Numbered from the stretch's first letter, positions 4,369 through 24,057 are shown. The stretch: DNA of 61,982 nt from Thermoplasmata archaeon (GCA_028864975.1 JAGWLG010000019.1:1-61982), one strand, 5' to 3'. Notes: generated by a model from the letters alone, not told the origin. Translations and numbers: made by a program.

Positions 4369-4734
4369 GACCGGACCTCAGAGAAGCCGGGGGTAGGAGG
4401 TCTTCGAGGAGGAGCGCAAGAACCCCTGGTCCCACGAGGAGCAAGGGGCGATTACCGGGGGACTGGCGTGCGACGGCTCTGCGTGCTCAACGACCAAAGA
4501 ATGCATGTCGGGCTCCCAAGAGGGAGACCTCTATTCGAGACCCGGTATATGTTTGCTTCGCCGAATTTCTCTTAACGACAAAATGAACGGATTTGTGCAT
4601 CGGAATCTCTGTTCCGCCAACAGAACCCATCGTTTCCTGTCCCCCGCTCCGCGTCGTGCTGCGACGAAGCAAGGGGAGGCGCGCGGAACCTCAAGAAGAG
4701 CGGTCGGCGCCCGCTCGGCTCCTCCCCCCGAACC

Positions 4735-4973
4735 CCTCTGGGATCGTAGAACAGCTCACTGTGGCGCTGCGCATGGTTCGTGATCGGTCCCCTCCGTCGC
4801 TCGACCAGGGGGAAGGCGAGGAACGCCGGGTTGCGGGGAGCTACGCGGTCGTGGAGCGGACGCTCACTTAGCGCGACGCGGACCCACTCTTGGATCGTCT
4901 TCCCCTCCGCTCGGGCCTTCCGTCGGAGAAGCTCGTACTCGGCCTCGGTAAGGCGGGCTTGGGGCAGCTTCTT
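4735..4973 (-). pseudogene. Orphan copy of the CopG/RHH-like antitoxin; start codon lost
   Basis: KLPQARLTEAEYELLRRKARAEGKTIQEWVRVAL closely matches 19233..19475, but AAG (4971-4973) occupies the ATG position and no VapC follows. Confidence 0.75.
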
Positions 4974-5038
4974 GAAAGCTCCATGATCCAGTCGCCTACC
5001 TGAGTCCTTTCGGTCCCGCCGAGTCCCCCCTTGCGTGT

Positions 5039-6073
5039 TCACGGGCTCGTGGGCCAAGGGAACGCCTCCCCGTAGCTCTCGAGGGCCCGTCGCTGTCGAC
5101 GAGGGTTGGACTCGAGGTACTTCATCGTCGTGGCGAGGTTCTCGTGCCGCAGGAACTCCTGGACCGTGCGGTAGACCCCGTCGCGCGAGGCGCTGGGGCT
5201 CTCCAGGAGGCTCTCTTCCAGCATGGTCGCCCCTGAGCGGCGCAGCATGTGAGAGGAGAGGTGGAGGGGGCGCCCCCTCGCGGCCACCCTCACCTCGATG
5301 GCGTGGACCGCTGCGTCGAGAGCGGTTTCGGAGTACGGACGGAGCCCGTGAGCTCTCTTCGAGACCATGACGAGCGCCTCGGGGGGCACGGGACACTCGG
5401 GGTAGAGGAGACGTCCCTCCTCCACGACCGCCTCCCGGTGCACGAGGTACCGGGCGAAGACCGAAGCGAAGGACGGGTGCAACGGCGAATAGGCCAGCTT
5501 GGGCGACCCGCGTCCCTTCCCCCGGATCAGGAGTCGCCCCTGGGCGAGGTCCACGTCCTCCACGCGCAGCCGACGCCATTCGACCCGGCGCATTCCCTGG
5601 CCCAGTCCGAGCATCGCGAGGAAGGCGAGGAGTGGGTCCTCCTGGACCGCTTCGAGGACGGCCCTCGCCTCCTCCCGGGAGAGCCAGCGGACGTTGCGCC
5701 GGGGAAGGGGCGGAGGGATGCCGGCTTCCTCGAAGATCGCGCTCCCCGCGAACCGAGCGAAGTCGGAGATGATCCACAGGCTCCACGTGTCGTGGCCCCG
5801 GAACGCCTTGATCCTCGCCGCATCCTCGAGCGTCCAACGGGCAGGGTCCAGGGGTCGGCCCTCGGACCTGAGGAGGAGAAGGAGCTGGACGACGACCCGG
5901 TGGTAGGACTGGATCGTCCTCTCCACGCAACCCTTCCTCCTCTTGCTCGCGATCCATCTCGTGAAGACCTCCGGGATAGGCACGCCGGGGGCCACGACGC
6001 AACGGTCGGTGGGGCCGGTTCCTGGCGGCGCCGCAGGGCGGTCCTCGGCTTGAGGGAGCGACGGGTTCGACAT
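5039..6073 (-). CDS. Tyrosine recombinase/integrase (array copy 1)
   Basis: Catalytic residues present: GMRRVEW (R), RGKG (K), SHMLRR (H-x-x-R), FLRHENLATTMKYL (H, Y). Confidence 0.92.
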   Translation of the reverse strand: MSNPSLPQAEDRPAAPPGTGPTDRCVVAPGVPIPEVFTRWIASKRRKGCVERTIQSYHRVVVQLLLLLRSEGRPLDPARWTLEDAARIKAFRGHDTWSLWIISDFARFAGSAIFEEAGIPPPLPRRNVRWLSREEARAVLEAVQEDPLLAFLAMLGLGQGMRRVEWRRLRVEDVDLAQGRLLIRGKGRGSPKLAYSPLHPSFASVFARYLVHREAVVEEGRLLYPECPVPPEALVMVSKRAHGLRPYSETALDAAVHAIEVRVAARGRPLHLSSHMLRRSGATMLEESLLESPSASRDGVYRTVQEFLRHENLATTMKYLESNPRRQRRALESYGEAFPWPTSP

Positions 6074-6099
6074 GCCCCACCGGCGTACGCGACGACGGT

Positions 6100-6136
6100 A
6101 TCAAGCTCGAGGGGTGACGGGGGACCTCGACGGTGC
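6100..6136. repeat. Conserved integrase-upstream motif, copy 1 (ATCAAG-N20-CTCGACGGTGC)
   Basis: 26 nt from the integrase start codon at 6073. Confidence 0.85.
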
Positions 6137-6215
6137 CCCCCCAGCTCGACGGAAGGGCGGGCGCGGGCCATGGGGACGCCCGAAAGTGCACGTCGGTGCC
6201 CGTCGTCACGACGGG

Positions 6216-7643
6216 TCAGTCCCCCGGCCTGCCATCGGTCACCGGACGCGTATCGACCCCCGTACCGCGCGCGGCGAGGCTCCCGAGCGCCTCCAGATCC
6301 AGAACGAACCCACCCCTCTGGGCGACGAGGGCGCAGGCCTCTCGCGTAGCACCCCCGCGAGCCACGATGAAAGGACGAACAGGCCGCCGGTCGGTCCGCT
6401 CCATCAGGGAGGACTTTCGCACAAGGTCCCGGACGAGCCCCTCCCCGACGGGACGAGCGCTCCACTTGACCTCGCCACACCAGATCTCCTCCGGGCCCGA
6501 GACCACGAGGTCGATCTCCTCCCCCACGCGATTCCACCATCGACCGATCCGATCGAAGCGTAGCGGATGCCCTTCGACCTCGCTCCCCTGCCGCGACTCG
6601 AGCACGTCGCGGACCACCGCTTCGAAAGCTCGTCCGACGTGGTCCTCCAGGTCGCGCTGAACTCGGGATAGGACCACCGCCTGGCCGTGCTGCTCCAGCA
6701 GGTGACGGTTCGGTCGGACGAAACGGAAGTAGAAACTGAAGAACGGGTCGGAGAGCTCGTAGCGGGTCCGCCGTTCCAGACCACAGACCGGGGATTCGGG
6801 GCGGATCAGGTCGAGGTCCTTCCCGAGGGCCTCGAGATACGGCGTGAGACCCCCTGCACGGACCCCGGTCCGATGCTCGAGCTCGGAGAGCGAGGTGGAC
6901 CCCTGTCCGAGCGCGGCAAGGATGGAGCTGTACCGGTCCAGCGTTCGGAGTTCGGTCAGCAGCAGTTCGTAAGGTTCGTCACGAAAGCGCGCGTCCTTGG
7001 AAAGATAGCAATCCAAGATCGCCTCGTCGAGCCCCTTGCCCACGCTCGGCTCATGGTAGGCGGGAGTCCGTCCGAAGACCGCGAAGCGTCGGACACGGGC
7101 GTCCTCGGGTTCGTGGGGGTAGAGCAACCTGACGCCCGGGTAGCTGAAGGGCCGAAGGTGAAGGTCGTGGGTGAAACGGCCGTAGAGGGGGCCCGTGCGA
7201 TATCGGGTGAGGCGCAGCATCATTCCGATGCTGCTACCGCACAGGACCAGGTGGGGCCCATGCTCCTTCCACCCGAGGTCCCACGTTCGTTGCAAGACCC
7301 CCGCCACGTGCAGATCGCGGTCGGTGAGGTTCTGGAACTCATCGATGACGATCACGCTGGGGTCGGCCCGCTCCAGCGCGTGGAAGAACTCCGGCCAGGT
7401 GGAGAAGGGACCCACGGGACCCCTCACCTGGTCGGCCAGTTGGGTCGTGAGGTCCGTGATCTGGGGGAGCGTGTCACCGGGGGCGGCGGACAGGTAGAGC
7501 CCGCGGGTGGAGCGTAGGATGCGCTGGAGGAGCTCGGTCTTGCCTACCCGACGCCGCCCATACACTCGAATGAGCTGCGGTCGGGGCGCCCGGAGCGCAT
7601 GTTCCAGGAGGGCAAGGTCCTCCGTGCGGTTGTAAAATTCCAT
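6216..7643 (-). CDS. Archaeal ATPase (ATPase_2/COG1672-type) with wHTH and C-terminal PD-(D/E)XK (DUF234-like) domain, copy A
   Basis: FYNRTEDL, GRRRVGKT, IDEFQ, LCGSS, FGRTPAY, DPFFSFYFRFV, RWW..GEEIDLV..GEVKW. Confidence 0.9.
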   Translation of the reverse strand: MEFYNRTEDLALLEHALRAPRPQLIRVYGRRRVGKTELLQRILRSTRGLYLSAAPGDTLPQITDLTTQLADQVRGPVGPFSTWPEFFHALERADPSVIVIDEFQNLTDRDLHVAGVLQRTWDLGWKEHGPHLVLCGSSIGMMLRLTRYRTGPLYGRFTHDLHLRPFSYPGVRLLYPHEPEDARVRRFAVFGRTPAYHEPSVGKGLDEAILDCYLSKDARFRDEPYELLLTELRTLDRYSSILAALGQGSTSLSELEHRTGVRAGGLTPYLEALGKDLDLIRPESPVCGLERRTRYELSDPFFSFYFRFVRPNRHLLEQHGQAVVLSRVQRDLEDHVGRAFEAVVRDVLESRQGSEVEGHPLRFDRIGRWWNRVGEEIDLVVSGPEEIWCGEVKWSARPVGEGLVRDLVRKSSLMERTDRRPVRPFIVARGGATREACALVAQRGGFVLDLEALGSLAARGTGVDTRPVTDGRPGD

Positions 7644-7703
7644 AACTTAGATTATAATGCACCATATTCTAAATAATGTTGCCTAACGGCCCGCCCTGAC
7701 CGC

Positions 7704-8714
7704 TCAGCAGGGGTTGGGCCATGGGAACACCTGCCCGTACCGTTCCAGCGCACTCCTCTGCCTCCGTGGGTTCGATTCGAGGTACCTCATCGTCGTGGCG
7801 AGGTTCTCGTGGCGGAGGAACTCCTGCACCGCTCGATAGACCCCGTCGCGGGAGGCCTCCGGGCTCTCGAGCAGCGCTTCCTCGAGCATGGTCGCCCCCG
7901 ACCGTCGGAACATGTGGGAGGAGAGATGGACGGGCCGTCCCCGGGCCGCGGTTCGCTCCTCGATCGCGTGCACCAACTGGTCCAGGGCCGTGTCCGAGTA
8001 GGCCCGCAGCCCCTGGGCCACCTTCGAGAGCATCACGAGGGCTTCCGGAGGGACCGGGCTCCCCGGATAGCGTAGGAGCGCCTCGTTGACGAGCTCCTGC
8101 CGATAGGCGAGGTACCGCTCGAAGATGGCCGGGAACGCCGGATGGAGCGGAGAGGAGACGATCTTGGGGGTCGCCCTCCCCTTCCCCCGGATGAGGAGCC
8201 GCCCGTTCGGAAGGTCCACGTCCTCCAGGCGGAGACGCCTCCACTCGACCCGGCGCATCCCGTGCCCCAGCCCGAGCATCGCAACGAAGGACAGAAGAGG
8301 GTCGTCCGAGACGGCTTCCAGGACGGCGCGCACCTCGTCGCGGGTCAGCCATCGTACGTTCTTCCGCGCGGGGGCCGGAGGGATCCCGGCTTCATCCAGG
8401 ACCCTGCTGCCGGCGAACCGGGCGAAATCGGCGACAACCTGCAAGCTCCGGCTGTCCTCACGCCGGGACTGTTTGATGCGCTCGGCGTCTTCCAAGGTCC
8501 AATCGGTGGGGTCGAGCGGACGTCCTTGGGCCCGAAGGAAGAGCAGGGCGTGAACCACCACCCGTTGGTACTCACGGACCGTGGAGGGAACACAACCCTT
8601 CCGCCGCTTGCTCTCCAGCCACCGTAGGAGGGTCGGAGGGACCGGGGCGGAGGAGCACGGCGCGGAGGGCGCAAAGGGTTGCGTGGCGGCGGAAGGAGGG
8701 GTGGGGTCGGACAT
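7704..8714 (-). CDS. Tyrosine recombinase/integrase (array copy 2)
   Basis: Same R-K-HxxR-H-Y set. Start moved to ATG 8714 (MSDP), matching the 25-26 nt motif spacing of the other copies. Confidence 0.92.
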   Translation of the reverse strand: MSDPTPPSAATQPFAPSAPCSSAPVPPTLLRWLESKRRKGCVPSTVREYQRVVVHALLFLRAQGRPLDPTDWTLEDAERIKQSRREDSRSLQVVADFARFAGSRVLDEAGIPPAPARKNVRWLTRDEVRAVLEAVSDDPLLSFVAMLGLGHGMRRVEWRRLRLEDVDLPNGRLLIRGKGRATPKIVSSPLHPAFPAIFERYLAYRQELVNEALLRYPGSPVPPEALVMLSKVAQGLRAYSDTALDQLVHAIEERTAARGRPVHLSSHMFRRSGATMLEEALLESPEASRDGVYRAVQEFLRHENLATTMRYLESNPRRQRSALERYGQVFPWPNPC

Positions 8715-8739
8715 GCCCCCGCTTGGTACGGCCGCAGGT

Positions 8740-8775
8740 ATGAAGGTCGACACGACGCGTCGTACTCGACGGTGC
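8740..8775. repeat. Conserved motif, copy 2 (ATGAAG-N19-CTCGACGGTGC)
   Basis: 25 nt from the integrase 2 start codon. Confidence 0.85.
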
Positions 8776-8907
8776 TCCTATTTCGTGAGGGAGGGACGGA
8801 GAAGGTCTTGGAGCGCCCCGGCGTTCGCCGCGACCCGTGATGACGTTCGCCGACACCGCCAAGACGGCGCCAGGGGCCCCGTGGGCCGGTCTTCTCCCCC
8901 TTCCCTC

Positions 8908-9128
8908 TCACGGCGGAGCCGGCCAGGGGAACACCCTGGCGTACGGATCGAAGGCCTTCCTCTGTCGCCGAGGGTTCGACTCGAGGTACCTCATCGTCGT
9001 CGCCAGGTCCTCGTGGCGGAGGAACGTCTGCACCGTCCGATAAACCCCGTCGCACGAGGCCTCAGGGCTCTCGAGGAGCGTCTCCTCGAGCAGGGTCGCG
9101 CTCGAGCTGCGGAACATGAGGGAGGAGG
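8908..9128 (-). pseudogene. Integrase C-terminal remnant
   Basis: MFRSSSATLLEETLLESPEASCDGVYRTVQTFLRHEDLATTMRYLESNPRRQRKAF, with no N-terminal half. Confidence 0.85.
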
Positions 9129-9271
9129 GCGCCAGGCACCGCCCCGGAGCGGCGACGTTCTCCTCGAGGCATGCCCCCACTGGTCCCGCGTGCGGTCCGA
9201 GCGGGTCCGTGGCCCCTGCGCCCTCCGGGACGGCATCGCGAGCGGTGCGGCGAGGATGCTCGTTCCGGACC

Positions 9272-10669
9272 TCAAGACCTGCCCGCTCGCTCTCTCCTCC
9301 TCTGCTCCGCCATCAGGCGTTGCAGCCCCACAAGGTCCAGCCAGAAGCCCCCCTTCCTCTCCAGAAGGGCTTGGGCCGCCCTGGAGAGCTCGCCCCGGGA
9401 GACGATGAAGGGCCTCCACGCCTGGGGGGAAGGGATAGGCAGAAGCCGCGCCTTCGCCAGCAACCGTTGGACGAGGTCCTCCCCCAGGTCCCTGTCGCTC
9501 CACTTGACCTCACCCACCCAGACCTCGCTCGGTCCGGCCGAGACCACGTCGATCTCCTCGCCCCGGCGGTCCCACCAGCGCCCGATCTGGTCGAACCGGT
9601 GCACGTGCCCGTTCACCTCTCGGGCCTGGGCGAGGATCTGGAGGACGACGTCCTCGAAGACCCTCCCCACGTAACTCTCGAGCCCTTCTTCGATCAACTC
9701 CCAGAGGCGGTCCTCCCGACCTAGCTCGACCAGGTCGAACCGTTCCGAGACGAACCGGTAGTAGAACCGGAAGAACGGGTCCAAGAGCTGGTAGCGCCCC
9801 AGCCGCTTCTTGCCGAGAACGGGTTGCTCGTGCCGCACCAGGTCCACGTCTCGCGTCAGCGAAGCGAGGTACCAGCCCAGCCCCCCTTTCGGGACCCGAA
9901 GGCTCGTTTCGAGGTCTCCCAGCCCCTGGGGGTTCTGGGCGAGCCGTTGGAGGATGCCGTGATACCGAGCGGGCTCCCGGAACTCCTGCGTCAGGATCCT
10001 CTCCGGTTCCTCCACGAGCGCGCCCTGAGGGCGGAGCAGGGTCCGGCGTACCGCCTGCTCCAGCGTTCCGCCGACCGAGAGCGACTGGTAGTACGGAACT
10101 CCGCCGAAGACGGCGTAGCGGCGGATCCGGTCCTCCTCGGAAAGCCCCTCATGGAACTCTCTGGCGTGAGCGTAGGGGAGTGGCCGGAGATGCAGATGGT
10201 GCAGCACTCTTCCGAACAGGGGGGCCCTCCCTCGAACGAGGCGCTGCATCATCCCTATGCTGCTGCCGCAAAGGATGAGGTTCGGTCCATGCTCCTTCCA
10301 CCTGCGGTCCCATCGAAGCTGGATCTCGCTCTCGACCCCGACCCCGAGCTCCATCGCGTGCTGGAACTCGTCAAGGACGACCAGTCGAGGAACTCGGGTC
10401 TCGAGGTCGTCGAACAGGTCCGAGAAGGACCGGTACGGGCCCACGTTCTGTCGGAGTTGGGCCGAGAGCTGCGCCGCGAGGGTTTCGAGAGCGGTGGCCT
10501 GGTCGGTCTCGGGGACCACCAGGAGAAGGCCGGGTGTGCCCCTCAGCAGCTGGTGCAAGAGTTCGCTCTTGCCCACTCGGCGCCGACCCAGGATGCGGAC
10601 GAGCTGAGGGCGGTCCTTCGAGAGGTCCTCCTGGAGGGACCGGAGCTCGGCCTCCCTCCCAATGAACAT
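9272..10669 (-). CDS. ATPase-wHTH-PD-(D/E)XK (DUF234-like) protein, copy B
   Basis: MFIGREAEL, GRRRVGKS, LDEFQ, FGGVPYY, RWWDRRGEEIDVV..GEVKW. Start at ATG 10669. Confidence 0.9.
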   Translation of the reverse strand: MFIGREAELRSLQEDLSKDRPQLVRILGRRRVGKSELLHQLLRGTPGLLLVVPETDQATALETLAAQLSAQLRQNVGPYRSFSDLFDDLETRVPRLVVLDEFQHAMELGVGVESEIQLRWDRRWKEHGPNLILCGSSIGMMQRLVRGRAPLFGRVLHHLHLRPLPYAHAREFHEGLSEEDRIRRYAVFGGVPYYQSLSVGGTLEQAVRRTLLRPQGALVEEPERILTQEFREPARYHGILQRLAQNPQGLGDLETSLRVPKGGLGWYLASLTRDVDLVRHEQPVLGKKRLGRYQLLDPFFRFYYRFVSERFDLVELGREDRLWELIEEGLESYVGRVFEDVVLQILAQAREVNGHVHRFDQIGRWWDRRGEEIDVVSAGPSEVWVGEVKWSDRDLGEDLVQRLLAKARLLPIPSPQAWRPFIVSRGELSRAAQALLERKGGFWLDLVGLQRLMAEQRRRERAGRS

Positions 10670-10703
10670 ATGTAAACAACTCCAGTAGGATATTTTAGAA
10701 TAT

Positions 10704-10970
10704 CTAATATCCCCGCGGGGCCGTTCCAGGTTGCTCCTCCGGCGCTGACGGGGACGCCGGCCAAGGGAACGCCTCCCCGTAGCTCTCGAGGGCACGTCGC
10801 GGTCGACGAAGGTTCGACTCGAGGTACCTCATCGTCGTGGCCAGGTTCTCGTGGCGGAGGAACTCCTGCACCGTCTGGTAGACCCGTCGCGCGAGGCTGG
10901 GGGCTCTCGCGGAGCGTCTCCTCCAGGAACGGGGCCCCTGAGCGCCGGAACACGTGCGAGGTGAACTGCG
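10704..10970 (-). pseudogene. Frameshifted integrase C-terminal remnant
   Basis: VFRRSGA..LEETLRESP in one frame and VYQTVQEFLRHENLATTMRYLESN in another. Confidence 0.85.
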
Positions 10971-11065
10971 AGGGCCGCTCCCAGGAGACGACTGCCTCCC
11001 CTTCGACTCAGGCCGAGGGAAAGGACGAGAAGTGGAAGGTCTTCGCGACGGAGATCGCGGGCCTC

Positions 11066-11470
11066 TCACTGGAGGTTGCGGCGGGCCCACTCAAGGACCC
11101 TCGAGGCCTGGGCGACGGTCTTCGCGGCCTGCCCGGAGGTGAGCCGACGGGACTCGTACTCCACGATGTTCTTGAGCGTAAGAACCTCGTGTACCTGGAT
11201 CACCTTGACGCTCCAATCTGGGAGCTTGGCCTGGTCGAGGAGAAGGACGACCTCGTGATGGTCCTGCCCTCGCGACCGGCGTCCAAGGTGATAGACACAG
11301 AGCGCATCACAAGATGAGATCACACAGTGCACGGCGTTGAGCGCCGCCGAATCGTAGGCTCCCTCGCTGAGAGCCCGGTCCATCCATCGCCCGAACTCCT
11401 CGGCCTTCGCGAGGTGGGCCCGGAAGTTCTCGCGGGGCACGCTCGCCCAGCGAAGGGTCCCTCGGGTCAC
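11066..11470 (-). CDS. HEPN-domain protein (MNT-HEPN pair)
   Basis: YDSAALNAVHCVISSCDAL..GQDH..KNIVEY pattern; 4-nt GTGA overlap with the upstream MNT gene. Confidence 0.8.
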   Translation of the reverse strand: MTRGTLRWASVPRENFRAHLAKAEEFGRWMDRALSEGAYDSAALNAVHCVISSCDALCVYHLGRRSRGQDHHEVVLLLDQAKLPDWSVKVIQVHEVLTLKNIVEYESRRLTSGQAAKTVAQASRVLEWARRNLQ

Positions 11471-12060
11471 GCAGCCCTCCGGACCAGGACCCCGTCGCGC
11501 TCGATCTCGGACAGGAGCGCGGGGTTGGGGGGCCTTCGCAGCTGGGACGGGCCATAGACCAGGGAGGTGAGCGTGTTCCCGTACCTTCGGGCAACTTCCA
11601 ACGACAACCCACCGAGCCGGGAAGAGACCTCGTCCACGGCAGCGTCCGAGCGGGCCTCGACGTAGAAGTCGATGTCGCTGCCCTCCCGATCTTCCCCTCT
11701 CGCCACGGAACCGAAGAGGACCGCGCGGGTCACGAGACCCCAGGGGACCCTGCCTCCGAGGAACCGACAGAGCTCTTCACGCGAAGAGCTCTCCTCCTCG
11801 AAGAGCTTGCGGAGCCGAGAGGTCCACACATGCGAGGGTGAGAGGCTCCAGACCTGGGCGCGTCCGACCACCTTGGCGCGCACGATCCCGGTTTCCTCAA
11901 GGTCCCGAAGAGAACGGCTCAGGGCTGGTCCGGTCACGCCGGAGGCTCGAGAGAGCTCGCGCCCGGTGAACTCGCGCCTCGAGGATCGAAGGAGGACGCG
12001 CAGGAGTTTCACTTTGGACGGCGGGGAGAGAAGGGTGTCCAGACCCAGATGGAACCTCAT
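11467..12060 (-). CDS. HTH-fused minimal nucleotidyltransferase (MNT)
   Basis: N-terminal HTH (FTGRELSRASGV) and LFGSVARGEDREGSDIDFYV (GS-x10-DxD). Confidence 0.88.
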   Translation of the reverse strand: MRFHLGLDTLLSPPSKVKLLRVLLRSSRREFTGRELSRASGVTGPALSRSLRDLEETGIVRAKVVGRAQVWSLSPSHVWTSRLRKLFEEESSSREELCRFLGGRVPWGLVTRAVLFGSVARGEDREGSDIDFYVEARSDAAVDEVSSRLGGLSLEVARRYGNTLTSLVYGPSQLRRPPNPALLSEIERDGVLVRRAA

Positions 12061-12086
12061 GATACACAGACATTCCACATGACATA

Positions 12087-13142
12087 TTAATATTCACCTA
12101 ACGGCTCCGGGGTCGAGGGCCACGGCAACGCCTGGCCAAACTGGTCGAGAGCGCGTCGCTGACGACGGGGATTGGACGCCAAGTACCTCATCGTTGTGGC
12201 CAGGTTCTCGTGGCGGAGGAACTCCTGCACCGTTCGATAGACCCCGTCGCGCGAGGCTTGCGGGCTGTCGAGCAGGGCCTCCTCCAGAAGGGTCGCCCCC
12301 GACCTTCGGAACATGTGGGAGGAGAGGCGGACAGGTCGCCCGCGGTCAGCGACCCTCTCCTCGATGGCGTGCACCAGTTCGTCCAGAGTGGTGTCCGAGT
12401 AGGCCCGGAGCCCTTGCGCCACGTTGGACAGGAGAACGAGCGCCTCGGGGGGCACCGTGCTCCCGGGGTACCGCAGGAGCGATTCCTGGACCAACCGTTG
12501 ACGATAGGCAAGGTACCGCTCGTAGATCGCGGGGAAGGCGGGGTGGAGAGGCGACCATGCGAGCTTGGGCGTGGCACGGCCCTTTCCCCGGATGAGGAGG
12601 CGTCCTTGGGCAAGGTCCACGTCCTCCAGGCGGAGCCGCTTCCACTCGACCCGTCGCATCCCCTGTCCAAGCCCGAGGATGCCGACGAACGAGAGCAGGG
12701 GGTCGTCCCGGACCGCCTCGAGGACGGCTCGTGCCTCGTCCTGGGTCCGCCATCGGACGTTCCGGGGGGCAGGGGGCGGCGGGTTTCCGACCTCCAGAAA
12801 GACCCGGCTCCCCGCGAACTGGGCGAAGTTCCCGAGGATCTGCAGGCTCCAGTTGCTGTTGCCACAGAACCGCTTGATCCGCTCGGCATCTTCCAGGGTC
12901 CAACCTGCAGGATCGAGAGGACGAGCTTCGGCTCGAAGGAAGAGCAGGACCCGGACCACCACCTGTCGGCACTCACGGACCGCGGAGGGAACACAACCCT
13001 TCCGCCGCTTGCGCTCCAGCCATCGGTGGAGAACCTCAGGGGGAGGACCAGGAGGCGGGACCTTGCCCGGACCCGCGAGGGCGACCGCCGAGGACGGCTT
13101 CGGGGGTGGCGTTACGGTCGTGAGTGGGGCTGGGTCGGACAC
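12087..13142 (-). CDS. Tyrosine recombinase/integrase (array copy 3)
   Basis: GMRRVEW, RGKG, SHMFRR, FLRHENLATTMRYL; GTG start. Confidence 0.92.
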   Translation of the reverse strand: MSDPAPLTTVTPPPKPSSAVALAGPGKVPPPGPPPEVLHRWLERKRRKGCVPSAVRECRQVVVRVLLFLRAEARPLDPAGWTLEDAERIKRFCGNSNWSLQILGNFAQFAGSRVFLEVGNPPPPAPRNVRWRTQDEARAVLEAVRDDPLLSFVGILGLGQGMRRVEWKRLRLEDVDLAQGRLLIRGKGRATPKLAWSPLHPAFPAIYERYLAYRQRLVQESLLRYPGSTVPPEALVLLSNVAQGLRAYSDTTLDELVHAIEERVADRGRPVRLSSHMFRRSGATLLEEALLDSPQASRDGVYRTVQEFLRHENLATTMRYLASNPRRQRRALDQFGQALPWPSTPEPLGEY

Positions 13143-15850: not shown

Positions 15851-15921
15851 ATTATCCATTTATTGGATAATCCTTGTACTGGATAACTCTTGTGGAGAGC
15901 CCCAAGGGGAGGGCCGGGCGC

Positions 15922-16095: not shown

Positions 16096-16096
16096 T

Positions 16097-16275
16097 CTGG
16101 TCAGGCCGAGGCCCTCGGTGGGAACCGCCGACCGAGCTCCTGGGAGATCCTCTGAGAGTCGAACAGGAGGACCCCCGGCGCGCCCCGAAAGTCGAACCCG
16201 CTCTTGGAGAAGAGGACGAACCGGGGCGGCTTGCGATGGGGCAAGGCCTCCGGGATCTTCTGGAGGCGGCGGAGG
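16097..16275 (-). pseudogene. Duplicated 3' end of ATPase copy C
   Basis: Close DNA match to about 14476-14655 (ctggtcaggc...gtgggaaccgccgaccgagctcc...gcttgcgatggggcaaggcctccg). Confidence 0.85.
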
Positions 16276-16355: not shown

Positions 16356-17489
16356 TCACCTTGGCGACGACAGGCGGCGTCGTAGCTCGTGGAAGTAGGC
16401 GATGACGGGGGCCTTCCGGAGCTCATAGCGGGCGGGACCGACCTTGGCGATGACGCTGAGCCGCACGAGACGCCCCACGTAGGCGTAGTTCACCCCAAGC
16501 TCCAGGATGTCCTTCGTCCGGAAGGTGGTCTTCCCCGAACGTGCCAGACGAACGAAGGCGGCCACGTCCCCGTCGGAGGCATTTTGGAGCTCGCGCTCGA
16601 ACCACGCGGCCCCCACAGAGAGCGCGTTCGGGACGGCAGCGTCCACGTCGGGCGCACGCAACGCCCTTCCCTCCTGCCAAGCGGCGTAGGCGAGGCATTT
16701 CACCAGGTACGGATACCCATGCGAGAGCTCGTGGATCCGCTGGATGGACTCCGCGGTCCACGGGTCCGCGCCCCGCCTCCCCTTGAGAGGGGTCTCGAGG
16801 GCTTCCCGCGTCTCCCCCGCCGAGAAGGACTCCATGTCGAAGACCGCCCCCGAAAAGATCCGGGCCACCGGCGAATAGTCGTGGCTCGCCAGCCGATGCA
16901 GGAGCTCGGGTCCGGCGCCCACCGCCAGCAGGATGGGCACCGGGCTGTCCTCTTCCACGATGGACTTGAGCGTCCGTACGGCGTCGGGGCTCAGCCGTTC
17001 GGCATCGTCGATGGTCACCAGAAGGAGCGGCACCCCCGCGAGCGCGCTGAGGGTCTCCCGAAGGAGCGTCAGCGGATTGGTGGGGCTGCCGGCGGGCGCC
17101 TTCCCGACGCTCACCGAGGTACCCAGGACCGAGACCTGGACCCTGGTCAAACGGTCCCAGACCTTGTGCCAACGAGAACCTTCCAGCTTCTTCCTTCGCA
17201 CGAAGCTACGGGCCTCTTCCGCGACCGCCTCGAGCAACCGGTCCCCCGAGAGCGACTCCTGCAACGGCACCTCGACCACGATGGAGCCCGGCAGAGCTCC
17301 CTCGGAGAGGGATCGGATCTTCTTCAGGGCCGAGGTCTTTCCGCTTCCCCTGTGGCCGTGGACCAGGATGGCCGTACCTCGCCGATACCTGCTCGCGGCA
17401 TCGAGAGCCTCTCTCGTCCGCTGGATCAGGAGGGCGCGCCCAGCGAACTGGTCCGGAGGTGTCGGGTGCTGAGGATCGTAGGGGTTCAC
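16356..17489 (-). CDS. P-loop NTPase (AAA_16/STAND-like) with C-terminal wHTH
   Basis: NPY..P..FAGR, GHRGSGKT, TIDDAE, SHGYPYLV; no nuclease motif seen. Confidence 0.8.
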   Translation of the reverse strand: MNPYDPQHPTPPDQFAGRALLIQRTREALDAASRYRRGTAILVHGHRGSGKTSALKKIRSLSEGALPGSIVVEVPLQESLSGDRLLEAVAEEARSFVRRKKLEGSRWHKVWDRLTRVQVSVLGTSVSVGKAPAGSPTNPLTLLRETLSALAGVPLLLVTIDDAERLSPDAVRTLKSIVEEDSPVPILLAVGAGPELLHRLASHDYSPVARIFSGAVFDMESFSAGETREALETPLKGRRGADPWTAESIQRIHELSHGYPYLVKCLAYAAWQEGRALRAPDVDAAVPNALSVGAAWFERELQNASDGDVAAFVRLARSGKTTFRTKDILELGVNYAYVGRLVRLSVIAKVGPARYELRKAPVIAYFHELRRRLSSPR

Positions 17490-17579: not shown

Positions 17580-17684
17580 GGTCGTCGGGACGCACGCCTT
17601 CCTCTGCTTGGACTCGAGCCATCGTTGGAGCAGGGAGAGCTCCGGGGGTAGCGCTGGGACCGAGAGTAGGGGTGGGGCGGACAC
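17580..17684 (-). pseudogene. Integrase N-terminal remnant (copy-4-like)
   Basis: SVPALPPELSLLQRWLESKQRKACVPTT, truncated after about 35 codons. Confidence 0.85.
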
Positions 17685-17710
17685 GCCCCCGCAAGGTACG
17701 CGTGTCGGGT

Positions 17711-17746
17711 ATCAAGGTCGTCGCGGTGAGAGGTACTCGACGGTGC
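17711..17746. repeat. Conserved motif, copy 5
   Basis: ATCAAG-N19-CTCGACGGTGC, 26 nt from the remnant GTG start. Confidence 0.85.
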
Positions 17747-17885
17747 TCCCTCGGCCTTGCCCGGCGGCTCCCTGCTTCCTCTCGGCGTTCTTGTGCCGCC
17801 ATCCTGAACGCGAACTCCGCGGGCGGGTGCCCCGCACGGGCCCGACCCTTCCCCCTGCCGCCGGGGGATGGTCCGCGACGGTCGC

Positions 17886-18560
17886 CTACTTCCGACGGAT
17901 CGGCCGGGTCCCCGACGACGACCGGGCCACCTTCTCCATGCTCTTGGCCAGCCGGAGCAGCGCCGCGGTCTGCTGGACGGTGGCCCTCGTCTGGGCGCGC
18001 GGGTCCTTCTCGATGAGCCCGAGCCTCTTCCCGATCATGCCGTAGGCCACGCTCATCTCGTCGAAGCGATGGATGGTGTCCCGGTGCAGGAGGAGGGTGG
18101 CCTGGTTGCCCTTCTCGACACTGGCCCCGACCTTCTCGACTTTTGCTCCTAGGGACTCGAACCCCCGCTTCGTCTCGCTGGAGAGATGCTTCGTCTCCTG
18201 CGTGAGCACGTCCAGCGCTACTCCCGCGTACTCCATCCGCTCCAGCGTCTCGAGGTGGACCTCCCCGCGCTTCACTCGGAAGTCCGCGAGCTTCTCCTCC
18301 GCCGGGAGCTCGTCTCCCTCCCGGGTCACCGCCGTCGGGACGCTGCGGCCCTCGGGCTTCGTGATGGCCTGCCGGAACTCCTCGAGCGTGTCCGCGGGCC
18401 CCTGGACTTCGATAAGGACCCGGTCCTCGTTCGTCTCGTCATTCAGAACGCGTCCCGACAGCCCACGCAGGTCGGCCTCCCGCTTCACTCGCTGCCGATA
18501 GCCCACCAACTGGACGGTGCCGGTGGCCACCAGCTTCCAGCGCACCACGGGCTCGCTCAT
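17886..18560 (-). CDS. Acylphosphatase-domain protein with C-terminal coiled coil
   Basis: GTVQLVGYR and G.V.N resemble the AcyP motifs; helical C-terminal half; SD-like AAGGAGG upstream. Confidence 0.75.
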   Translation of the reverse strand: MSEPVVRWKLVATGTVQLVGYRQRVKREADLRGLSGRVLNDETNEDRVLIEVQGPADTLEEFRQAITKPEGRSVPTAVTREGDELPAEEKLADFRVKRGEVHLETLERMEYAGVALDVLTQETKHLSSETKRGFESLGAKVEKVGASVEKGNQATLLLHRDTIHRFDEMSVAYGMIGKRLGLIEKDPRAQTRATVQQTAALLRLAKSMEKVARSSSGTRPIRRK

Positions 18561-18650: not shown

Positions 18651-18687
18651 ATGAAGTTCACGGGGAGGCGAGGGACCTCGACGGTGC
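18651..18687. repeat. Conserved motif, copy 6 (no integrase behind it)
   Basis: ATGAAG-N20-CTCGACGGTGC. Confidence 0.8.
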
Positions 18688-18804
18688 CCCCCCTGTCCCG
18701 GGACTGGATCGGACCCAGAGCGGCCAGGGAGGAGGACCGGTGACGAGGGCCCGAGGGAGGCCCACAACTTCAGGAGGGTGGGGCAGCCTGCGCGGCGTGT
18801 TCGG

Positions 18805-19236
18805 CTACCGAACTCCCGCAGCTCCCGCCAGATGCGGCAGTCCGTTGAGCCCCGCCTGCGCGAAGTTCCGGTCCAGGGTCAGGGCATCCGAGATGCCCAG
18901 GTCGCGCATCACGAGAAAGCTGGTGCAGTCCGTCAGGCTCCACCGACGGTCCTGGTGCGCGAGCATGAGATCGAGGGCGCGCTCGAAGTGGTCGTCCGAG
19001 ACCTTCACCACCTCGTAGTTCCGGGAGGTGCGGAGCTGCTCCCGGAGACGATGGACCGCGTCAAGCCCCACCTTCATTCGGAGCAGGGTGTACGTCTCGT
19101 CCAGCACGTAGTCGGTGGTCAGGACCCGTCCGAACTCGCCGGCCAGGATCCTTCGGGAGAACCGGAGAAGCTCGCGATGCCATTGCTCCCGCGGGTCGGC
19201 CAGTGCGACCCACGCGCTGGTGTCGCAGAAGATCAA
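18805..19236 (-). CDS. vapC: VapC-family PIN-domain toxin
   Basis: DTSAW, DYVLDET, SLTDC, TLDRNF acidic tetrad; overlaps the antitoxin stop. Confidence 0.9.
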   Translation of the reverse strand: MIFCDTSAWVALADPREQWHRELLRFSRRILAGEFGRVLTTDYVLDETYTLLRMKVGLDAVHRLREQLRTSRNYEVVKVSDDHFERALDLMLAHQDRRWSLTDCTSFLVMRDLGISDALTLDRNFAQAGLNGLPHLAGAAGVR

Positions 19237-19475
19237 GTCGCCCCCCCATAGAGGAGATCGTCGTGGTGCTGCGCATGATTGGTCGCCGCGCCCCTCCGCC
19301 GCTCGACGAGAGGGAACGCGAGGAACGCGGGGTCACCGGGAGCTACACGGTCGTGGAGCAGACGCTCCCTTAGCGCGACGCGGACCCACTCCTGGATCGT
19401 CTTCCCTTCCGCTCGGGCCTTGCGTCGGAGAAGCTCGTACTCGGCCTCGGGAAGACGGGCTTGGAGCAGCTTCAT
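19233..19475 (-). CDS. CopG/RHH-type antitoxin (VapB-like)
   Basis: MKLLQARLPEAEYELLRRKARAEGKTIQEWVRVAL...HDDLLYG, directly upstream of VapC. Confidence 0.82.
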   Translation of the reverse strand: MKLLQARLPEAEYELLRRKARAEGKTIQEWVRVALRERLLHDRVAPGDPAFLAFPLVERRRGAATNHAQHHDDLLYGGAT

Positions 19476-19509
19476 ACAACATACAAAATGAAGTCGCGTA
19501 TATGAGCCC

Positions 19510-19673
19510 CTCCCGTCCCCCCTCAGCGAGATCCGGACCCGGTGGACCTCCCGCCCGTACCGTCGGAGGGTCGTCGGGACGCACGCCTTCCTCTGCTTGG
19601 ACTCGAGCCATCGTTGGAGCAGGGAGAGCTCCGGGGGCAGCGCTGGGACCGAGGGTGGGGGTGGGTCGGACAC
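19510..19673 (-). pseudogene. Integrase N-terminal remnant (copy-4-like), in frame with the antitoxin
   Basis: SDPPPPSVPALPPELSLLQRWLESKQRKACVPTTLRRYGREVHRV within ORF 19233..19688. Confidence 0.85.
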
Positions 19674-19699
19674 GCCCACCGAGCGCACGCGTGGGGGGT

Positions 19700-19735
19700 A
19701 TCAAGCTCGACGCGATGCGAGGTTCTCGACGGTGC
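19700..19735. repeat. Conserved motif, copy 7
   Basis: ATCAAG-N19-CTCGACGGTGC, 26 nt from the remnant GTG start. Confidence 0.85.
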
Positions 19736-19778
19736 ATCGTGGGCGGCCTCCTCCCCCCCTCCTCGGCGGTCCTGCGGG

Positions 19779-21161
19779 TCACCCCGGAAGCAGGTCCGCC
19801 AGCGAGAACGCCGCGCCCCCCTCTCGTTCCAGGAAGTCGCGAATTCGGGGAGAGGGTTCGCCACGGACCACGACGAAAGGCCGGACCCGTCGACGCCCCC
19901 GCTCTTCGATGAGACCTCCTTTCCACACCAACCGACGCACATCGTCCTCCGTGACCCCGCGGGGCGACCATTTCACCTCTCCGACCAGGAGTTCCTCTTC
20001 CCCGACGGCGACCACGTCGATCTCCTCGCCCGTGCGGCTCCACCAGGACCCGATGTCGTGGAAGTCGAGCTTGAACGGTCCCAGCGTGCTCCCCCGCTTC
20101 TCGAGGAGGAGCTCCCGGACGACGGTCTCGAACACCCGGCCCACATGGCCTTCCAGGTCCTTCGCGAGGCTCGCCCAGGCCCCGTCGATGTCGCCAAGCT
20201 CCAGGCGGCGTTCCTGGGGCACGATCAACCGATAGTGGAATCCCAGCGATGGGTCCGCGAACTCGTACCGGGCGCGTCGTGCCCGCCCCGCGATCGGACC
20301 GACCCGCCGGATCATGTCCAGGTCCTCCTCAAGGACCCGAAGAGAGCGGGAGAGCGTGCCCTGACGGACGCCGAGCGCATGCTCGAGGTCCGGGAGCGAG
20401 CGAGCCCCCCTTCCGATCGCCTGGAGGACGGAGGCGTAGCGCTCGGGAGCGCTCACCCCCTCTCGAAGAAGGGTACGCGGCTCGTCCCGAAGACGAGCGC
20501 TGTCCGAAAGGTACGCCGCGGTGACCGCCTCTTGGAGGCTCGGCCGCTCCCGCGTCAGCCGGTGGTTGAAGGGACTCCGCCCGAAGACCGCGAACCGGGC
20601 GACCCGGTCCTGCTCCGGAAGGCCGGGATAGAACTGTCGCACCGCGGGGTACGTCAACCCGCGGACCCGAAGGTCCGCCGTCAATCGACCGAAGAGCGGC
20701 CCGGTGCGACCTCCCACCAGTTGCCGCATCATTCGAATGCTGCTCCCGCATAGGACGAGGTGGGTTCCAAGGCGCCCGTGCTTGGCATCCCAGCGATGCT
20801 GGAGGCGGGTACCGACGGAGTGGTCCCCAGCCCATAGGAACGGGAACTCGTCCAGGACGGTCACCTCGGGGGAGAGCCGCTCGATCTCGTCGAGGAGGTC
20901 GTCCCAGCTACGGAGGACCGGCGCGCCCCGACCGGTGAACTGGGCGATCTGGGCGGCCAGCAGTTCCCGCTGGACGGGGGGCTCGCCCTCGTCCGCCACA
21001 AGGTAGAGGCCGTCCCGTCCCCGCAACGTCTCTCGCAGGAGGGCGGTCTTTCCGACCCGACGGCGTCCATAGACCCGCACCAACTGGGGCTCCCGGGAGC
21101 CCAGCACTCGGCGGAGTTCGCCGAGCTCACGTTCCCGGTCGACGAATGGAAATTCTTTCAT
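19779..21161 (-). CDS. ATPase-wHTH-PD-(D/E)XK (DUF234-like) protein, copy D
   Basis: FVDREREL, GRRRVGKT, LDEFP, LCGSS, SWWSRTGEEIDVV..GEVKW. Start at ATG 21161. Confidence 0.9.
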   Translation of the reverse strand: MKEFPFVDRERELGELRRVLGSREPQLVRVYGRRRVGKTALLRETLRGRDGLYLVADEGEPPVQRELLAAQIAQFTGRGAPVLRSWDDLLDEIERLSPEVTVLDEFPFLWAGDHSVGTRLQHRWDAKHGRLGTHLVLCGSSIRMMRQLVGGRTGPLFGRLTADLRVRGLTYPAVRQFYPGLPEQDRVARFAVFGRSPFNHRLTRERPSLQEAVTAAYLSDSARLRDEPRTLLREGVSAPERYASVLQAIGRGARSLPDLEHALGVRQGTLSRSLRVLEEDLDMIRRVGPIAGRARRARYEFADPSLGFHYRLIVPQERRLELGDIDGAWASLAKDLEGHVGRVFETVVRELLLEKRGSTLGPFKLDFHDIGSWWSRTGEEIDVVAVGEEELLVGEVKWSPRGVTEDDVRRLVWKGGLIEERGRRRVRPFVVVRGEPSPRIRDFLEREGGAAFSLADLLPG

Positions 21162-21284
21162 GACCCTAACTAAATGTTCTCGTGCATTTAAATTCGACCG
21201 AGCCCGTGGACCATCGGGCGCTGAGGGCCCCACGGCATGCGGAGGTCCGCGACACGACCCCGTCGGCCCGTCAGCACCGAGGCC

Positions 21285-21470
21285 TCACGAAGTCCTTGAG
21301 GGCGGGAAGGGCCACGCGAACGCCGGAGCGCATGGGTCCAACGCCTTGCGTCGGCGACGCGGGTTCGATTCGAGGTACTTCACGTCGTGGCCAGGTTCTC
21401 GTGGCGGAGGAACTCCTGGGCCGTTCAATGGACGCCCTTGCGGGAGAGCTGGAGCTCTCGAGGAGGGCGT
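21285..21470 (-). pseudogene. Degraded integrase C-terminal remnant
   Basis: DALLESSSSP, then after a frameshift KYLESNPRRRRKALDP..AFAWP; DNA gaggaactcc/ccaggttctcgtggcgg matches the other copies. Confidence 0.75.
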
Positions 21471-21871: not shown

Positions 21872-22813
21872 ATGACGCGAGCGCACCGCCGACAGACGAC
21901 CACCCGCCACGCAGTTCGAGCGCTAGAGGTCCTGCCGCACGTGTTGAAAGTGGCGGTGGATGAACTCTCTCGCTCAGCCGAAGGGCGGGCCGGGGGTCTC
22001 AAGTTCAACAAGCTGGTCTTCGCCTTGTCCAAAAAGCTGAACGCTGCCCAGAACCAAGAGTACCACTTCTCTCTCCCCTACCGGTGGTACCTGCACGGCG
22101 CAGTCGTGGACTCGAGGGCAGTCTCGCCTTGGGTCAAGTTTCAGCGGGACGACGACGAAACGAAGATGGACGCTGAGTGGTCGGGAGCGGTCCTCCGTGC
22201 AACAGCACCGGACGGACTGGAGGAGGAGGCCCGCTCCATCTCCCGGGAGTTCATATCCAAGTACGAGGGCTCCGAAGGCATCGACCGAATGCTGCAGGAT
22301 CACTACCAAGACGCCCCATTGCCCTTCCAGCGCGCGTTCCTCTCCTGGACGCAGTTGGTGGACGGCATCCTCTACGGTAGGGTCGACGACTCGCCCCGAG
22401 AGACCTGGGCAGCCTTCGAACGATTGGCGAAGGAGTTCAGGGCCGAGCCCGACGCCAGGCTTGACCCGCTCTTCCATACCCTGATTTTGTACCTCGAGCC
22501 ACTGGTAAAGGAGCGGAAGCTGGGCGACCGCTGGACCTTGGAGCGGGCGCAATCCGCGCTCTGGGAGTTCTGGTCGGTCTACTGTCTCTTCCTCTCGGTC
22601 CGCGAGAACAAGGGACTTTCCCGGGAACGCATTTCCTACTACCGAGTCCGAGCCGAGGAGGAGCTCCCGGCGTATCAACGCCGCCTCGCAGCTTACACGG
22701 AAACCGGCTATCTTCGCGAGGCTCGCGCTGCGTTCCAGCAGGGTGAGGGTTTGCGCGAGGTAGCCGCCTACCTGTCACGCGAAGCTCACGCCGCCCTGGA
22801 TGGGGATGCCTAG
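21872..22813 (+). CDS. Panacea/SocA (DUF4065)-like antitoxin-type protein
   Basis: KFNKLVF...PYRWYLHGAVV resembles the Panacea KLxKLxY...WxxGPV pattern; long helical extension. Confidence 0.5.
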   Translation: MTRAHRRQTTTRHAVRALEVLPHVLKVAVDELSRSAEGRAGGLKFNKLVFALSKKLNAAQNQEYHFSLPYRWYLHGAVVDSRAVSPWVKFQRDDDETKMDAEWSGAVLRATAPDGLEEEARSISREFISKYEGSEGIDRMLQDHYQDAPLPFQRAFLSWTQLVDGILYGRVDDSPRETWAAFERLAKEFRAEPDARLDPLFHTLILYLEPLVKERKLGDRWTLERAQSALWEFWSVYCLFLSVRENKGLSRERISYYRVRAEEELPAYQRRLAAYTETGYLREARAAFQQGEGLREVAAYLSREAHAALDGDA

Positions 22814-22815
22814 CT

Positions 22816-23502
22816 GTGCCCTTTGCCCTCGACACGCACGTCGTGTGCACAGCGCTCATTGACGGGGGCGACCTATTCTGGAACGAGTGGGTTGCCTTCG
22901 ACGAGGCCGAGACTGCTCCCAGGTTCGTGCCCCGCGCAGCTTACGACGAGCTCCAACGAGTCGTCGAAGGGCTCGGGCAGTCAACCTCTGGGCGCCTACG
23001 TGAGATCCTGACCGACACAGCACGAGCGATCTGGAGGAGCGACCCTGCTCGCCCGGACTCGGCGATGGTGAGCCGGCTCGGGCCGACGCACAACAGGGCT
23101 GGTCGTGTCGAGAGGATGCTCTCCTTTCTGGATCAAGCTCTCGGAGAGAACTGGGACTCCGGGCGAGCGCGTTCACTGTTGCGACAGATGGAGCTGGACT
23201 ATACCGTGAGGAAGAAGTCCTTCTTCGACAAGCACGAGGTGTTCGAACCGGTCGACCCGGTCCAGGTGGAGAAGATCGCAGCCTCCCTCGCCACGGTGGT
23301 GCCCTCCAGCAGCCCCAACGGTTCTTGGGCCGAGGACTGCCTCATCATCTCACAATCCGCGGCCTATGGCATCGAGCGAGGATGTGGAGTCGAACTCGTC
23401 ACTCAGGATGACCGTCACATCCACGCGAACGCCGTCGAGATCCTGAAGCGTTCGGGGCTTGATTCAATCCGAGACCTCAGCGGGAAGAAGCGGACCCCAT
23501 AG
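22816..23502 (+). CDS. Divergent PIN-fold protein
   Basis: ALDTHVV, YDELQ, EDCLII, LVTQDD fit the PIN acidic tetrad; starts 2 nt after the previous stop. Confidence 0.55.
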   Translation: MPFALDTHVVCTALIDGGDLFWNEWVAFDEAETAPRFVPRAAYDELQRVVEGLGQSTSGRLREILTDTARAIWRSDPARPDSAMVSRLGPTHNRAGRVERMLSFLDQALGENWDSGRARSLLRQMELDYTVRKKSFFDKHEVFEPVDPVQVEKIAASLATVVPSSSPNGSWAEDCLIISQSAAYGIERGCGVELVTQDDRHIHANAVEILKRSGLDSIRDLSGKKRTP

Positions 23503-23683
23503 AGAGTACCACCCCGGACCGGACCGCGTCAAGGTCGCGAAGTTCGACCGGGTTCACCGATTTCCCTGTCTGGTGGGATGCCTACCTTTCGTCCCCAGGG
23601 CGGAGCTTAAGGTAGACCTCGCGGGAACCGTGACGTGTACCTCTCCGGAATGCACACCTAGGGAGAGGGGGGATGCGGGACCG

Positions 23684-23878
23684 ATGGTCCCAACGGGGGG
23701 GGCCATCCCGATGCAAGGGTGCGTCAGCCTCCGCCCCCTCAAGGCCGTCGCCGAGACCTTCGGAGCCGCCCACCCGCTCCGGACCCTCCTGATGGGCGAG
23801 CCCGACGAGATCCCCGCCATGGAGTACGCGGCGAAGGTGGCGGGCTGGTTCCGTCTGATGCGGACCCACCGTCCATGA
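23684..23878 (+). CDS. Small hypothetical protein
   Basis: 3' part of ORF 23459..23878; ATG 23684 follows a G-rich SD-like tract; HPLRTLLMGEPDEIPAMEYAAKVAGW looks protein-like. Confidence 0.45.
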   Translation: MVPTGGAIPMQGCVSLRPLKAVAETFGAAHPLRTLLMGEPDEIPAMEYAAKVAGWFRLMRTHRP

Positions 23879-24057
23879 CAACCGAGAACTCGTGGGGCCT
23901 TCTGGGACTCGGGCCGAGGGGGACAGATTTGCCAGCGCTTGAAAACGGAGGCTTAATCCCATCGTCTGACCTATTTCCGTTGCATAGAACGCAATTCTAA
24001 GCGCTGTTTTCTCTGTTTTCTCAGCGGATTTGGGGTGAATTTGAACGTGAAGGGGAA

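Follow-up and report, generated by a model that had tools for sequence, protein, structure and literature searches.

The window analysed here is a stretch of 61,982 nucleotides from a Thermoplasmata archaeon (GCA_028864975.1), and is the entire 62-kb contig C73 of an assembly of 3.6 Mb with 67% G+C and a completeness of roughly 90%. Its minus strand carries, from 4.5 to 21.5 kb, an array of about 17 kb and about ten modules, in which genes and remnants of Xer-like tyrosine recombinases (integrases, the intact ones named int1 to int4) are interspersed with small cargo genes, including four for ATPase–nuclease fusions (ATPd1 to ATPd4). On balance, the array appears to have arisen by serial accretion of mini integrase–cargo modules, and recombination among its integrase paralogs now reshapes it. 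The reshuffling has been shown by comparison of array versions: crossovers in the most conserved stretch of the integrase paralogs delete, reorder and fuse modules, and microhomology deletions remove integrase bodies while the cargo stays. The locus is a strain-variable island of this archaeon, not an assembly artefact.

Versions of the array

Two further NCBI assemblies hold the array. Its presence in three independent assemblies excludes an assembly artefact, a risk that had been named in the initial annotation of this DNA, and the identity runs of 20 nt or less at the junctions make a k-mer assembler unlikely as their source. GCA_028867515.1 is 99.97% identical over 19.8 kb with the order unchanged. 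In GCA_028866665.1, identity is 99.8% between the tRNA and 8921 and 99.0% past 8019; this assembly is without exactly 1204 bp, consisting of the upstream motif and most of int2, so that ATPd2 is followed almost directly by ATPd1. A three-way alignment places this crossover between the C-terminal integrase fragment at 8.9 kb and the C-terminus of int2, within a 20-nt identical run. The run encodes T-T-M-R-Y-L-E, covering the catalytic-Tyr codons, and is the longest identical run of two repeats that are 76% identical.

A more distant version is found on the ENA contig L055 (22.7 kb), which carries int2, AAA_16, ATPd2, ATPd4, ATPd1 and int1 at 95–98% nucleotide identity in the order int2 – AAA_16 – motif stub – AAA_14+DUF4143 – ATPd2 – ATPd4 – ATPd1 – int1 – epimerase. 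The AAA_14+DUF4143 module is additional; VapBC, the acylphosphatase-like gene, MNT-HEPN and int3 are missing, and an ATPd3–int4-like module of the same sample lies on separate contigs. The AAA_16 copy of L055 is 99% identical and sits behind a full integrase. The sequence upstream of AAA_16 that is joined at 10 nt to an integrase fragment in the window is located in L055 300 nt downstream of the full integrase. At the ATPd2/ATPd4 junction of L055, the crossover again lies in the Tyr-codon stretch, and the integrase before ATPd1 has both an internal deletion joined at a 12-nt microhomology and a switch from int4-like to int2-like sequence just past the Tyr codons. Further short contigs have the order int1-like – ATPd3 – motif – int4-like, and in one sample an int4-like copy runs into the upstream region of the epimerase gene 57 nt before its start, representing a second array-end haplotype. 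All breakpoints mapped among the four array versions fall in integrase sequence or in microhomologies of 10–13 nt. Close relatives thus differ in module content and order, as expected of the variable arsenal proposed initially.

Selection and mosaic ancestry

Intact integrases and cargo are both under purifying selection: the ratio of nonsynonymous to synonymous divergence (dN/dS) is 0.20–0.28 for intact integrases, between paralogs as well as between arrays, and 0.07–0.23 for cargo. Synonymous divergence between the window and L055 is 0.03 for ATPd1 and ATPd2, 0.06 for AAA_16, 0.10 for ATPd4 and int2, 0.13 for int1, 0.25 for ATPd3 and 1.17 for the epimerase gene. It varies about 8-fold among the modules shared by these two related arrays, and this inequality indicates that the modules have no common history but a mosaic ancestry.

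The juxtaposition of modules at 95–98% identity with an epimerase gene at 78% had been considered as a sign of interspecies horizontal transfer; this idea was dropped, since the host of L055 is a close relative, in which a 3.8-kb stretch past the island matches contig C16 from the host of the window at 99.6% identity. A Tn3-family transposase occupies L055 14195–16948, between the epimerase-side flank and the stretch matching C16, and its position probably explains the left end of contig C73.

Organization of the array

The order on the minus strand from tRNA-Pro to the epimerase gene, built from Pfam, PADLOC and self-comparison, is as follows.

24057–24133, minus strand: tRNA-Pro(GGG) (ARAGORN), neighbour of the array, with no repeated attachment (att) sequence
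21872–23502, plus strand: two open reading frames (ORFs) of 313 and 228 aa, function unassigned, between the tRNA and the first integrase remnant
21299–21466, minus strand: integrase C-terminal remnant (self-comparison)
19779–21161, minus strand: ATPd4, ATPase_2+DUF234 (PDC-S27), with its own AT-rich promoter at 21142–21201
19508–19738, minus strand: motif (19722–19735), integrase promoter and first ~55 codons, an N-terminal remnant
18805–19475, minus strand: ribbon-helix-helix (RHH) antitoxin and PIN toxin, VapBC-like (domain profiles)
18651–18693, minus strand: solo motif stub with no integrase behind it (motif scan and self-comparison)
17886–18560, minus strand: gene with an acylphosphatase-like N-terminal domain and a C-terminal half of no assigned family
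17580–17755, minus strand: motif (17733–17746) and first ~35 integrase codons, an N-terminal remnant
16356–17489, minus strand: AAA_16 (STAND-like) ATPase (Pfam)
16097–16275, minus strand: copy of the ATPd3 3' end, 179 nt, 91% identical, abutting an integrase remnant
15922–16098, minus strand: integrase C-terminal remnant (self-comparison)
14480–15859, minus strand: ATPd3, ATPase_2+DUF234 (PDC-S27) (Pfam, PADLOC)
13337–14382, minus strand: motif (14366–14379) and intact int4 (gene 13337–14317), no cargo behind
12087–13207, minus strand: motif (13191–13204) and intact int3 (gene 12087–13142)
11066–12078, minus strand: winged helix-turn-helix (wHTH)-MNT nucleotidyltransferase and HEPN pair (domain profiles)
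10745–10985, minus strand: integrase C-terminal remnant (self-comparison)
9272–10669, minus strand: ATPd2, ATPase_2+DUF234 (PDC-S27) (Pfam, PADLOC)
8908–9312, minus strand: integrase C-terminal remnant, which recombined with int2 in the variant lacking 1204 bp
7704–8778, minus strand: motif (8762–8775) and intact int2 (gene 7704–8714), missing from GCA_028866665.1
6216–7643, minus strand: ATPd1, ATPase_2+DUF234 (PDC-S27) (Pfam, PADLOC)
5039–6142, minus strand: motif (6123–6136) and intact int1 (gene 5039–6073), the last integrase of the array
4572–5036, minus strand: decayed RHH antitoxin copy without PIN partner (4761–5020 is 83% identical to 19263–19522)
3301–4368, minus strand: NAD-dependent epimerase, a flank kept in other arrays

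Units here are 0.9–2.7 kb in size and have one integrase and zero to two cargo genes, several being integrase-only. The order listed above supports the repeat unit proposed in the initial annotation, namely motif or promoter, integrase, and cargo with its own promoter. A 10-nt microhomology marks the fusion of the N-fragment at 17580–17755 with sequence upstream of AAA_16, and the duplicate of the ATPd3 3' end lying against an integrase remnant at 16097–16275 is a deletion scar. Self-comparison also reveals that segment 7716–9118 is 78% identical to 12117–13547 (1431 nt), a duplication of integrase, spacer and partial integrase. Cargo and integrases all lie on the minus strand, as had been claimed; the co-orientation does not extend to the two ORFs at 21872–23502, which are within the range first assigned to the array and on the plus strand. 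No other plus-strand genes separate the tRNA from the array. These tightly spaced, unannotated ORFs gave no match in Pfam, PADLOC or NCBIfam and are called as genes in GCA_028866665.1.

The integrase family

The four full tyrosine recombinases (Pfam PF00589) score 42–55 bits against a cut-off of 27.1, are 63–74% identical in pairwise comparison, and retain the catalytic R, K, HxxR, H and Y invariantly in alignments. Together with the remnants, four C-terminal and two N-terminal according to self-comparison, they bear out the original count of four intact paralogs and six decayed ones. No long repeats other than the integrase paralogs occur in the array, and these share at most 28 nt of uninterrupted identity. 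On the archaeal XerA model NF040815 they score 54 bits, far below the equivalog cut-off of 220, and on the integron-integrase model TIGR02249 they score 39 bits against a cut-off of 265; the closest solved structures are XerA proteins (PDB 4a8e, 5hxy). The canonical XerA of the host is encoded 12 kb from the array at 35525–36481 on the minus strand (228 bits, NF040815 cut-off 220), has SAM_4 and Phage_integrase domains, and is about 30% identical to the array integrases over the N-terminal half. By these sequence criteria the array integrases are a family that is Xer-like yet distinct.

In a tree of 85 family members, int1 to int4 fall within a clade of eight (SH-like approximate likelihood ratio test (SH-aLRT) support 99), whose remaining four members belong either to related arrays or to a tandem pair found on a Logan contig. 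Other assemblies (L049, L056) also have tandem integrase pairs of this family, at different loci. All relatives of the array integrases are in records named 'Thermoplasmata archaeon'. The family is present in 11 of 61 related genomes, a tally that is the one result here to draw on the unpublished genome G028, and all 11 belong to the same GTDB family. Neither the integrase family nor the array was found in the three genomes of the same genus (G001–G003), and elsewhere in the host genome the sole trace of the family is a 45-residue C-terminal fragment, 64% identical, at contig C79:52356–52490.

The coexistence of N- and C-terminal fragments recalls the 'suicidal' integrases of the SSV type, in which the recombination site lies inside the gene and integration splits it into N and C halves around the element. 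Read in the direction of transcription, the segment 21466–19508 has such a pattern (C-fragment, cargo, motif, N-fragment), and three crossovers cluster in the Tyr-codon region. This region is, however, the longest nucleotide identity run of the paralogs, where homologous recombination is expected, and no tRNA sequence is found within the integrase genes. The N fragments stop at codons 35–55 and the C fragments begin at codons ~220–280, so that the halves are not complementary; this very improbable explanation was therefore rejected.

Cargo

The cargo comprises four ATPase_2+DUF234 genes, an AAA_16 ATPase, a wHTH-MNT and HEPN pair, an RHH and PIN pair, and an acylphosphatase-like gene, all co-oriented and belonging to five unrelated families; domain profiles agree with the list drawn up from the sequence at the outset. 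An AT-rich block, with no more than 37% G+C against 67% for the genome, stands in front of each cargo transcription unit; the acylphosphatase-like gene is the one exception. The window has 17 blocks of this kind, and 14 of them are found below 26 kb. ATPd1 to ATPd4 are 27–46% identical to one another, with Walker A, Walker B and a D...ExK nuclease motif invariant in the alignment. They match the PADLOC candidate PDC-S27 with E-values of 1e-28 to 1e-39 and combine, as that candidate does, an ATPase with a PD-(D/E)XK nuclease, the superfamily to which DUF234 has been assigned (PMC3424549). PDC-S27 and PDC-S01 are ATPase and PD-(D/E)XK fusions that are enriched in archaea and are not yet validated (PMC12988326; PMC3424549). 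The toxin–antitoxin pairs are RHH_1 with PIN, and NTP_transf_2 (with wHTH) with HEPN. The cargo may accordingly be regarded as candidate antiviral or toxin–antitoxin genes, the antiviral role being predicted. For the motif-bounded acylphosphatase-like unit no second context was found: all six contigs with an identical protein share the same neighbours. Rfam models over 3–26.5 kb detect only tRNA-Cys and no other RNA family.

Is the motif a crossover site?

The motif has the core GCACCGTCGAG, is 11–14 nt long, and lies about 45–60 nt upstream of integrase start codons. Seven copies are present in the array at two or fewer mismatches, compared with 0.75 expected; six precede an integrase start and the seventh is solo at 18674. 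A second GTCGA(G/C) follows the first after 21 nt. The repeated module spans from the motif, about 55 nt ahead of the start codon, to a conserved PWP a few codons before the stop, with a sharp break of homology at both ends. A TATA-like TTGATA or TTCATA is located about 20 nt downstream of the motif and about 30 nt before the integrase ATG, which suggests that the integrase transcript is leaderless. In single-copy relatives a related 9-nt motif occurs once, about 60–80 nt before the start, and it is not repeated between the neighbouring toxin–antitoxin cassettes of single-integrase relatives. The location of the motif, and its presence as one copy in relatives, are as compatible with a promoter or operator as with a crossover site.

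If the motif is the crossover site, any intact integrase might move motif-bounded circles in an active, integron-like cassette exchange. This would account for the sharp loss of homology between units at the 5' edge of the motif and for the solo motif stubs that precede cargo without an integrase, at 18651–18693 and at 2572 in L055. It would also agree with a motif-plus-promoter segment of 80 nt that is 100% identical at two places of a related array with unrelated left flanks, with the purifying selection on four integrases, and with retention of a related motif upstream of family members merely 45–55% identical. On the other hand, the initial annotation had anticipated rearrangements bounded by the motif, and none was mapped: the crossovers among the four versions lie in the conserved integrase stretch or in 10–13 nt microhomologies. 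The place of the motif relative to the TATA-like box and the probably leaderless start, and its single occurrence in single-integrase relatives, suit a regulatory element equally well, and a scan for inverted repeats between units found nothing recurrent, no attC-like hairpins and no evident inverted-repeat core with a 6–8 nt spacer. We consider such exchange unlikely.

A related and likewise unlikely proposal is that the units, each an integrase by itself or paired with one defence gene, are autonomous mini-elements of 1.2–2.7 kb that excise as circles and re-insert beside any resident copy through site-specific recombination at the motif. A check for circular mini-contigs found no matching ends in L064, L065, L066 or L068.

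Flanks and anchor

The initial annotation placed the array downstream of tRNA-Pro. The gene does adjoin the array; it is not the recombination target, because no fragment of it is repeated: two 24-nt probes from its 3' half, with up to three mismatches, match only the gene itself within the window. Moreover, no tRNA is nearby at nine of ten related loci scanned. The tRNA-Pro gene is conserved at 91–95% in same-genus genomes that have no array. It is called as tRNA-Pro(GGG) by ARAGORN with the anticodon at position 38, and falls below the gathering score of the Rfam tRNA model, unlike tRNA-Cys. G001–G003 retain both tRNA-Pro and tRNA-Cys, with differing DNA on both sides of tRNA-Pro; since the DNA on the array side is unrelated, these genomes offer no usable empty site. 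The distance from tRNA-Pro to tRNA-Cys varies too: it is 1.5 kb here (24134–25718) with one AAA_14+DUF4143 gene, which matches PDC-S01, 1.9 kb in G003, and 9 and 15 kb in G001:C44 and G002:C9, with open frames of 2673 and 3176 aa. Farther along the window, tRNA-Gly(GCC) at 59083–59177 on the plus strand is called at 95 nt, leaving room for an intron.

At the other end, the 3' end of the last integrase gene points to an epimerase gene at four loci (the window, L055, L002 and L061), which represent three well-separated branches of the family; the integrases of L002 and L061 are 46–49% identical to those of the array. The epimerase region is possibly the preferred target. In L061 the epimerase gene leads a glycosylation cluster. 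Position 4490, given initially as the left end of the array, is within the promoter region of the adjacent epimerase gene. Exact matches of at least 11 nt between the integrase-upstream region and the rest were at chance level at ten related loci searched for outer att repeats, and so were 12-mers shared by the epimerase 5' region and the array.

The single-copy relatives L061, L062 and L063 lie at the edge of stretches rich in toxin–antitoxin genes. In L062 (JGI Ga0669127_0000969, 1–11062), a distant family member ends about 10 kb of nearly all toxin–antitoxin pairs (four RHH-PIN pairs, a HicB-like gene and HepT-MNT), which are followed by a 947-aa PKD-domain protein.

Origin of the array

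In the account that appears on balance to hold, there would be at least ten modules, each originally composed of the motif with a TATA-like promoter, a Xer-like tyrosine recombinase, and one or two cargo genes with an AT-rich promoter. The modules would have arrived singly as small circular integrase-plus-cargo elements, each inserted next to an integrase already in place, through recombination either inside the shared integrase gene or at or close to the motif. The anchor would be the region upstream of the epimerase gene and not the tRNA. Serial arrival is favoured because the cargo families are unrelated, the ATPases have diverged beyond the integrases, the ancestry of the modules is mosaic, and tandem integrases of the family occur at other loci.

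Alternatively, one integrase–ATPase pair might have been expanded in situ by unequal crossing-over, with cargo swapped in later and no independent integrations. The array integrases do form one clade, the 1431-nt duplicate of integrase, spacer and partial integrase is in place, and unequal recombination between integrase copies is seen directly. Amplification of whole units is, however, hard to reconcile with cargo from five families and with cargo paralogs (27–46% identical) that are much more diverged than the integrases (63–74%), which argues against plain duplication of whole units. The 8-fold spread of synonymous divergence between two related arrays and the tandem pairs in L049 and L056 also speak against it, and we regard it as decidedly unlikely as the sole origin.

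Several observations weigh against serial accretion of mobile modules. The array integrases are monophyletic, and the 1.4-kb segment duplicated at 78% means that part of the array grew by internal duplication. None of the mapped differences is a motif-bounded rearrangement. Neither excision circles nor an empty site nor a duplicated att came to light, and no direct repeat was found that would tie the array to the tRNA or to the flank on the epimerase side; the left boundary of the array is not set by an empty-site comparison. The defence role of the cargo is putative.

Comparison with known systems

The tycheposons and cryptic elements of Prochlorococcus are described as tyrosine-recombinase elements that accumulate at one site and leave integrase fragments there (10.1101/2020.12.28.424599), and archaeal and bacterial elements form arrays by re-using one site (PMC6563490). 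Homologous recombination of tandem archaeal elements, leading to module exchange and chimeric integrases, has been proposed in a review (PMC8371274). The initial statement that this is not a described system was therefore overstated, as tandem accretion and decayed and chimeric integrases are already published.

Like tycheposons, the array consists of cargo-bearing tyrosine-recombinase elements placed side by side in a variable island, in which newer elements would have pushed older ones inward. Tycheposons are, however, about 10–20 kb long with replication modules and are split by partial copies of the target tRNA, whereas the array has units of 0.9–2.7 kb, no replication genes, no repeated tRNA fragment, and an archaeal host. 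As in archaeal tandem elements, one site would have been re-used, and recombination between related elements yields chimeric integrases, the latter being seen directly here; in those cases the tandem partners are multi-gene proviruses, plasmids or casposons, two or three at a time, in contrast to the roughly ten units here, which belong to a Xer-like clade. Among thaumarchaeal cryptic elements the smallest has four genes in 2.6 kb, whereas several units of the array consist of an integrase alone. The array resembles integrons in its co-oriented small cassettes rich in toxin–antitoxin or defence genes, its short junction site and its Xer/IntI-related recombinase, and differs from them in having many recombinase genes, cassettes with their own promoters, no attC-like hairpins, and integrases that do not reach the integron model. 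XerA is the closest named family, and provides the closest structures, though the score is far below its cut-off. The view that the locus is neither a classical integron nor an integrative and conjugative element or provirus is supported. Full-text literature searches gave no account of such arrays in Thermoplasmata and no integrase link for DUF234 or PDC-S27. What sets the array apart is the tiny size of the units, their number, their place in a Xer-like clade, an anchor other than a tRNA, and snapshots taken directly from a population.

Significance

The assembly of defence islands in archaea is poorly known, and here it can be followed to the nucleotide in four versions of a single island that recent events have set apart. 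The integrase paralogs serve as portable homology that reorders or deletes single-gene defence modules, and microhomology deletions fix the cargo while dropping the recombinase. The locus places PDC-S27 and PDC-S01, both archaea-enriched candidates, in a dedicated mobile setting and makes a stronger case for testing them. It also provides a compact substrate set, four live integrases and seven motifs, for asking whether a Xer-like enzyme mobilises one-gene cassettes. If the units were autonomous mini-elements using the motif as their site, they would be the smallest self-mobilising integrative elements known, and the array would amount to an integron with its recombinase distributed among the cassettes, trading candidate defence genes across Thermoplasmata populations.

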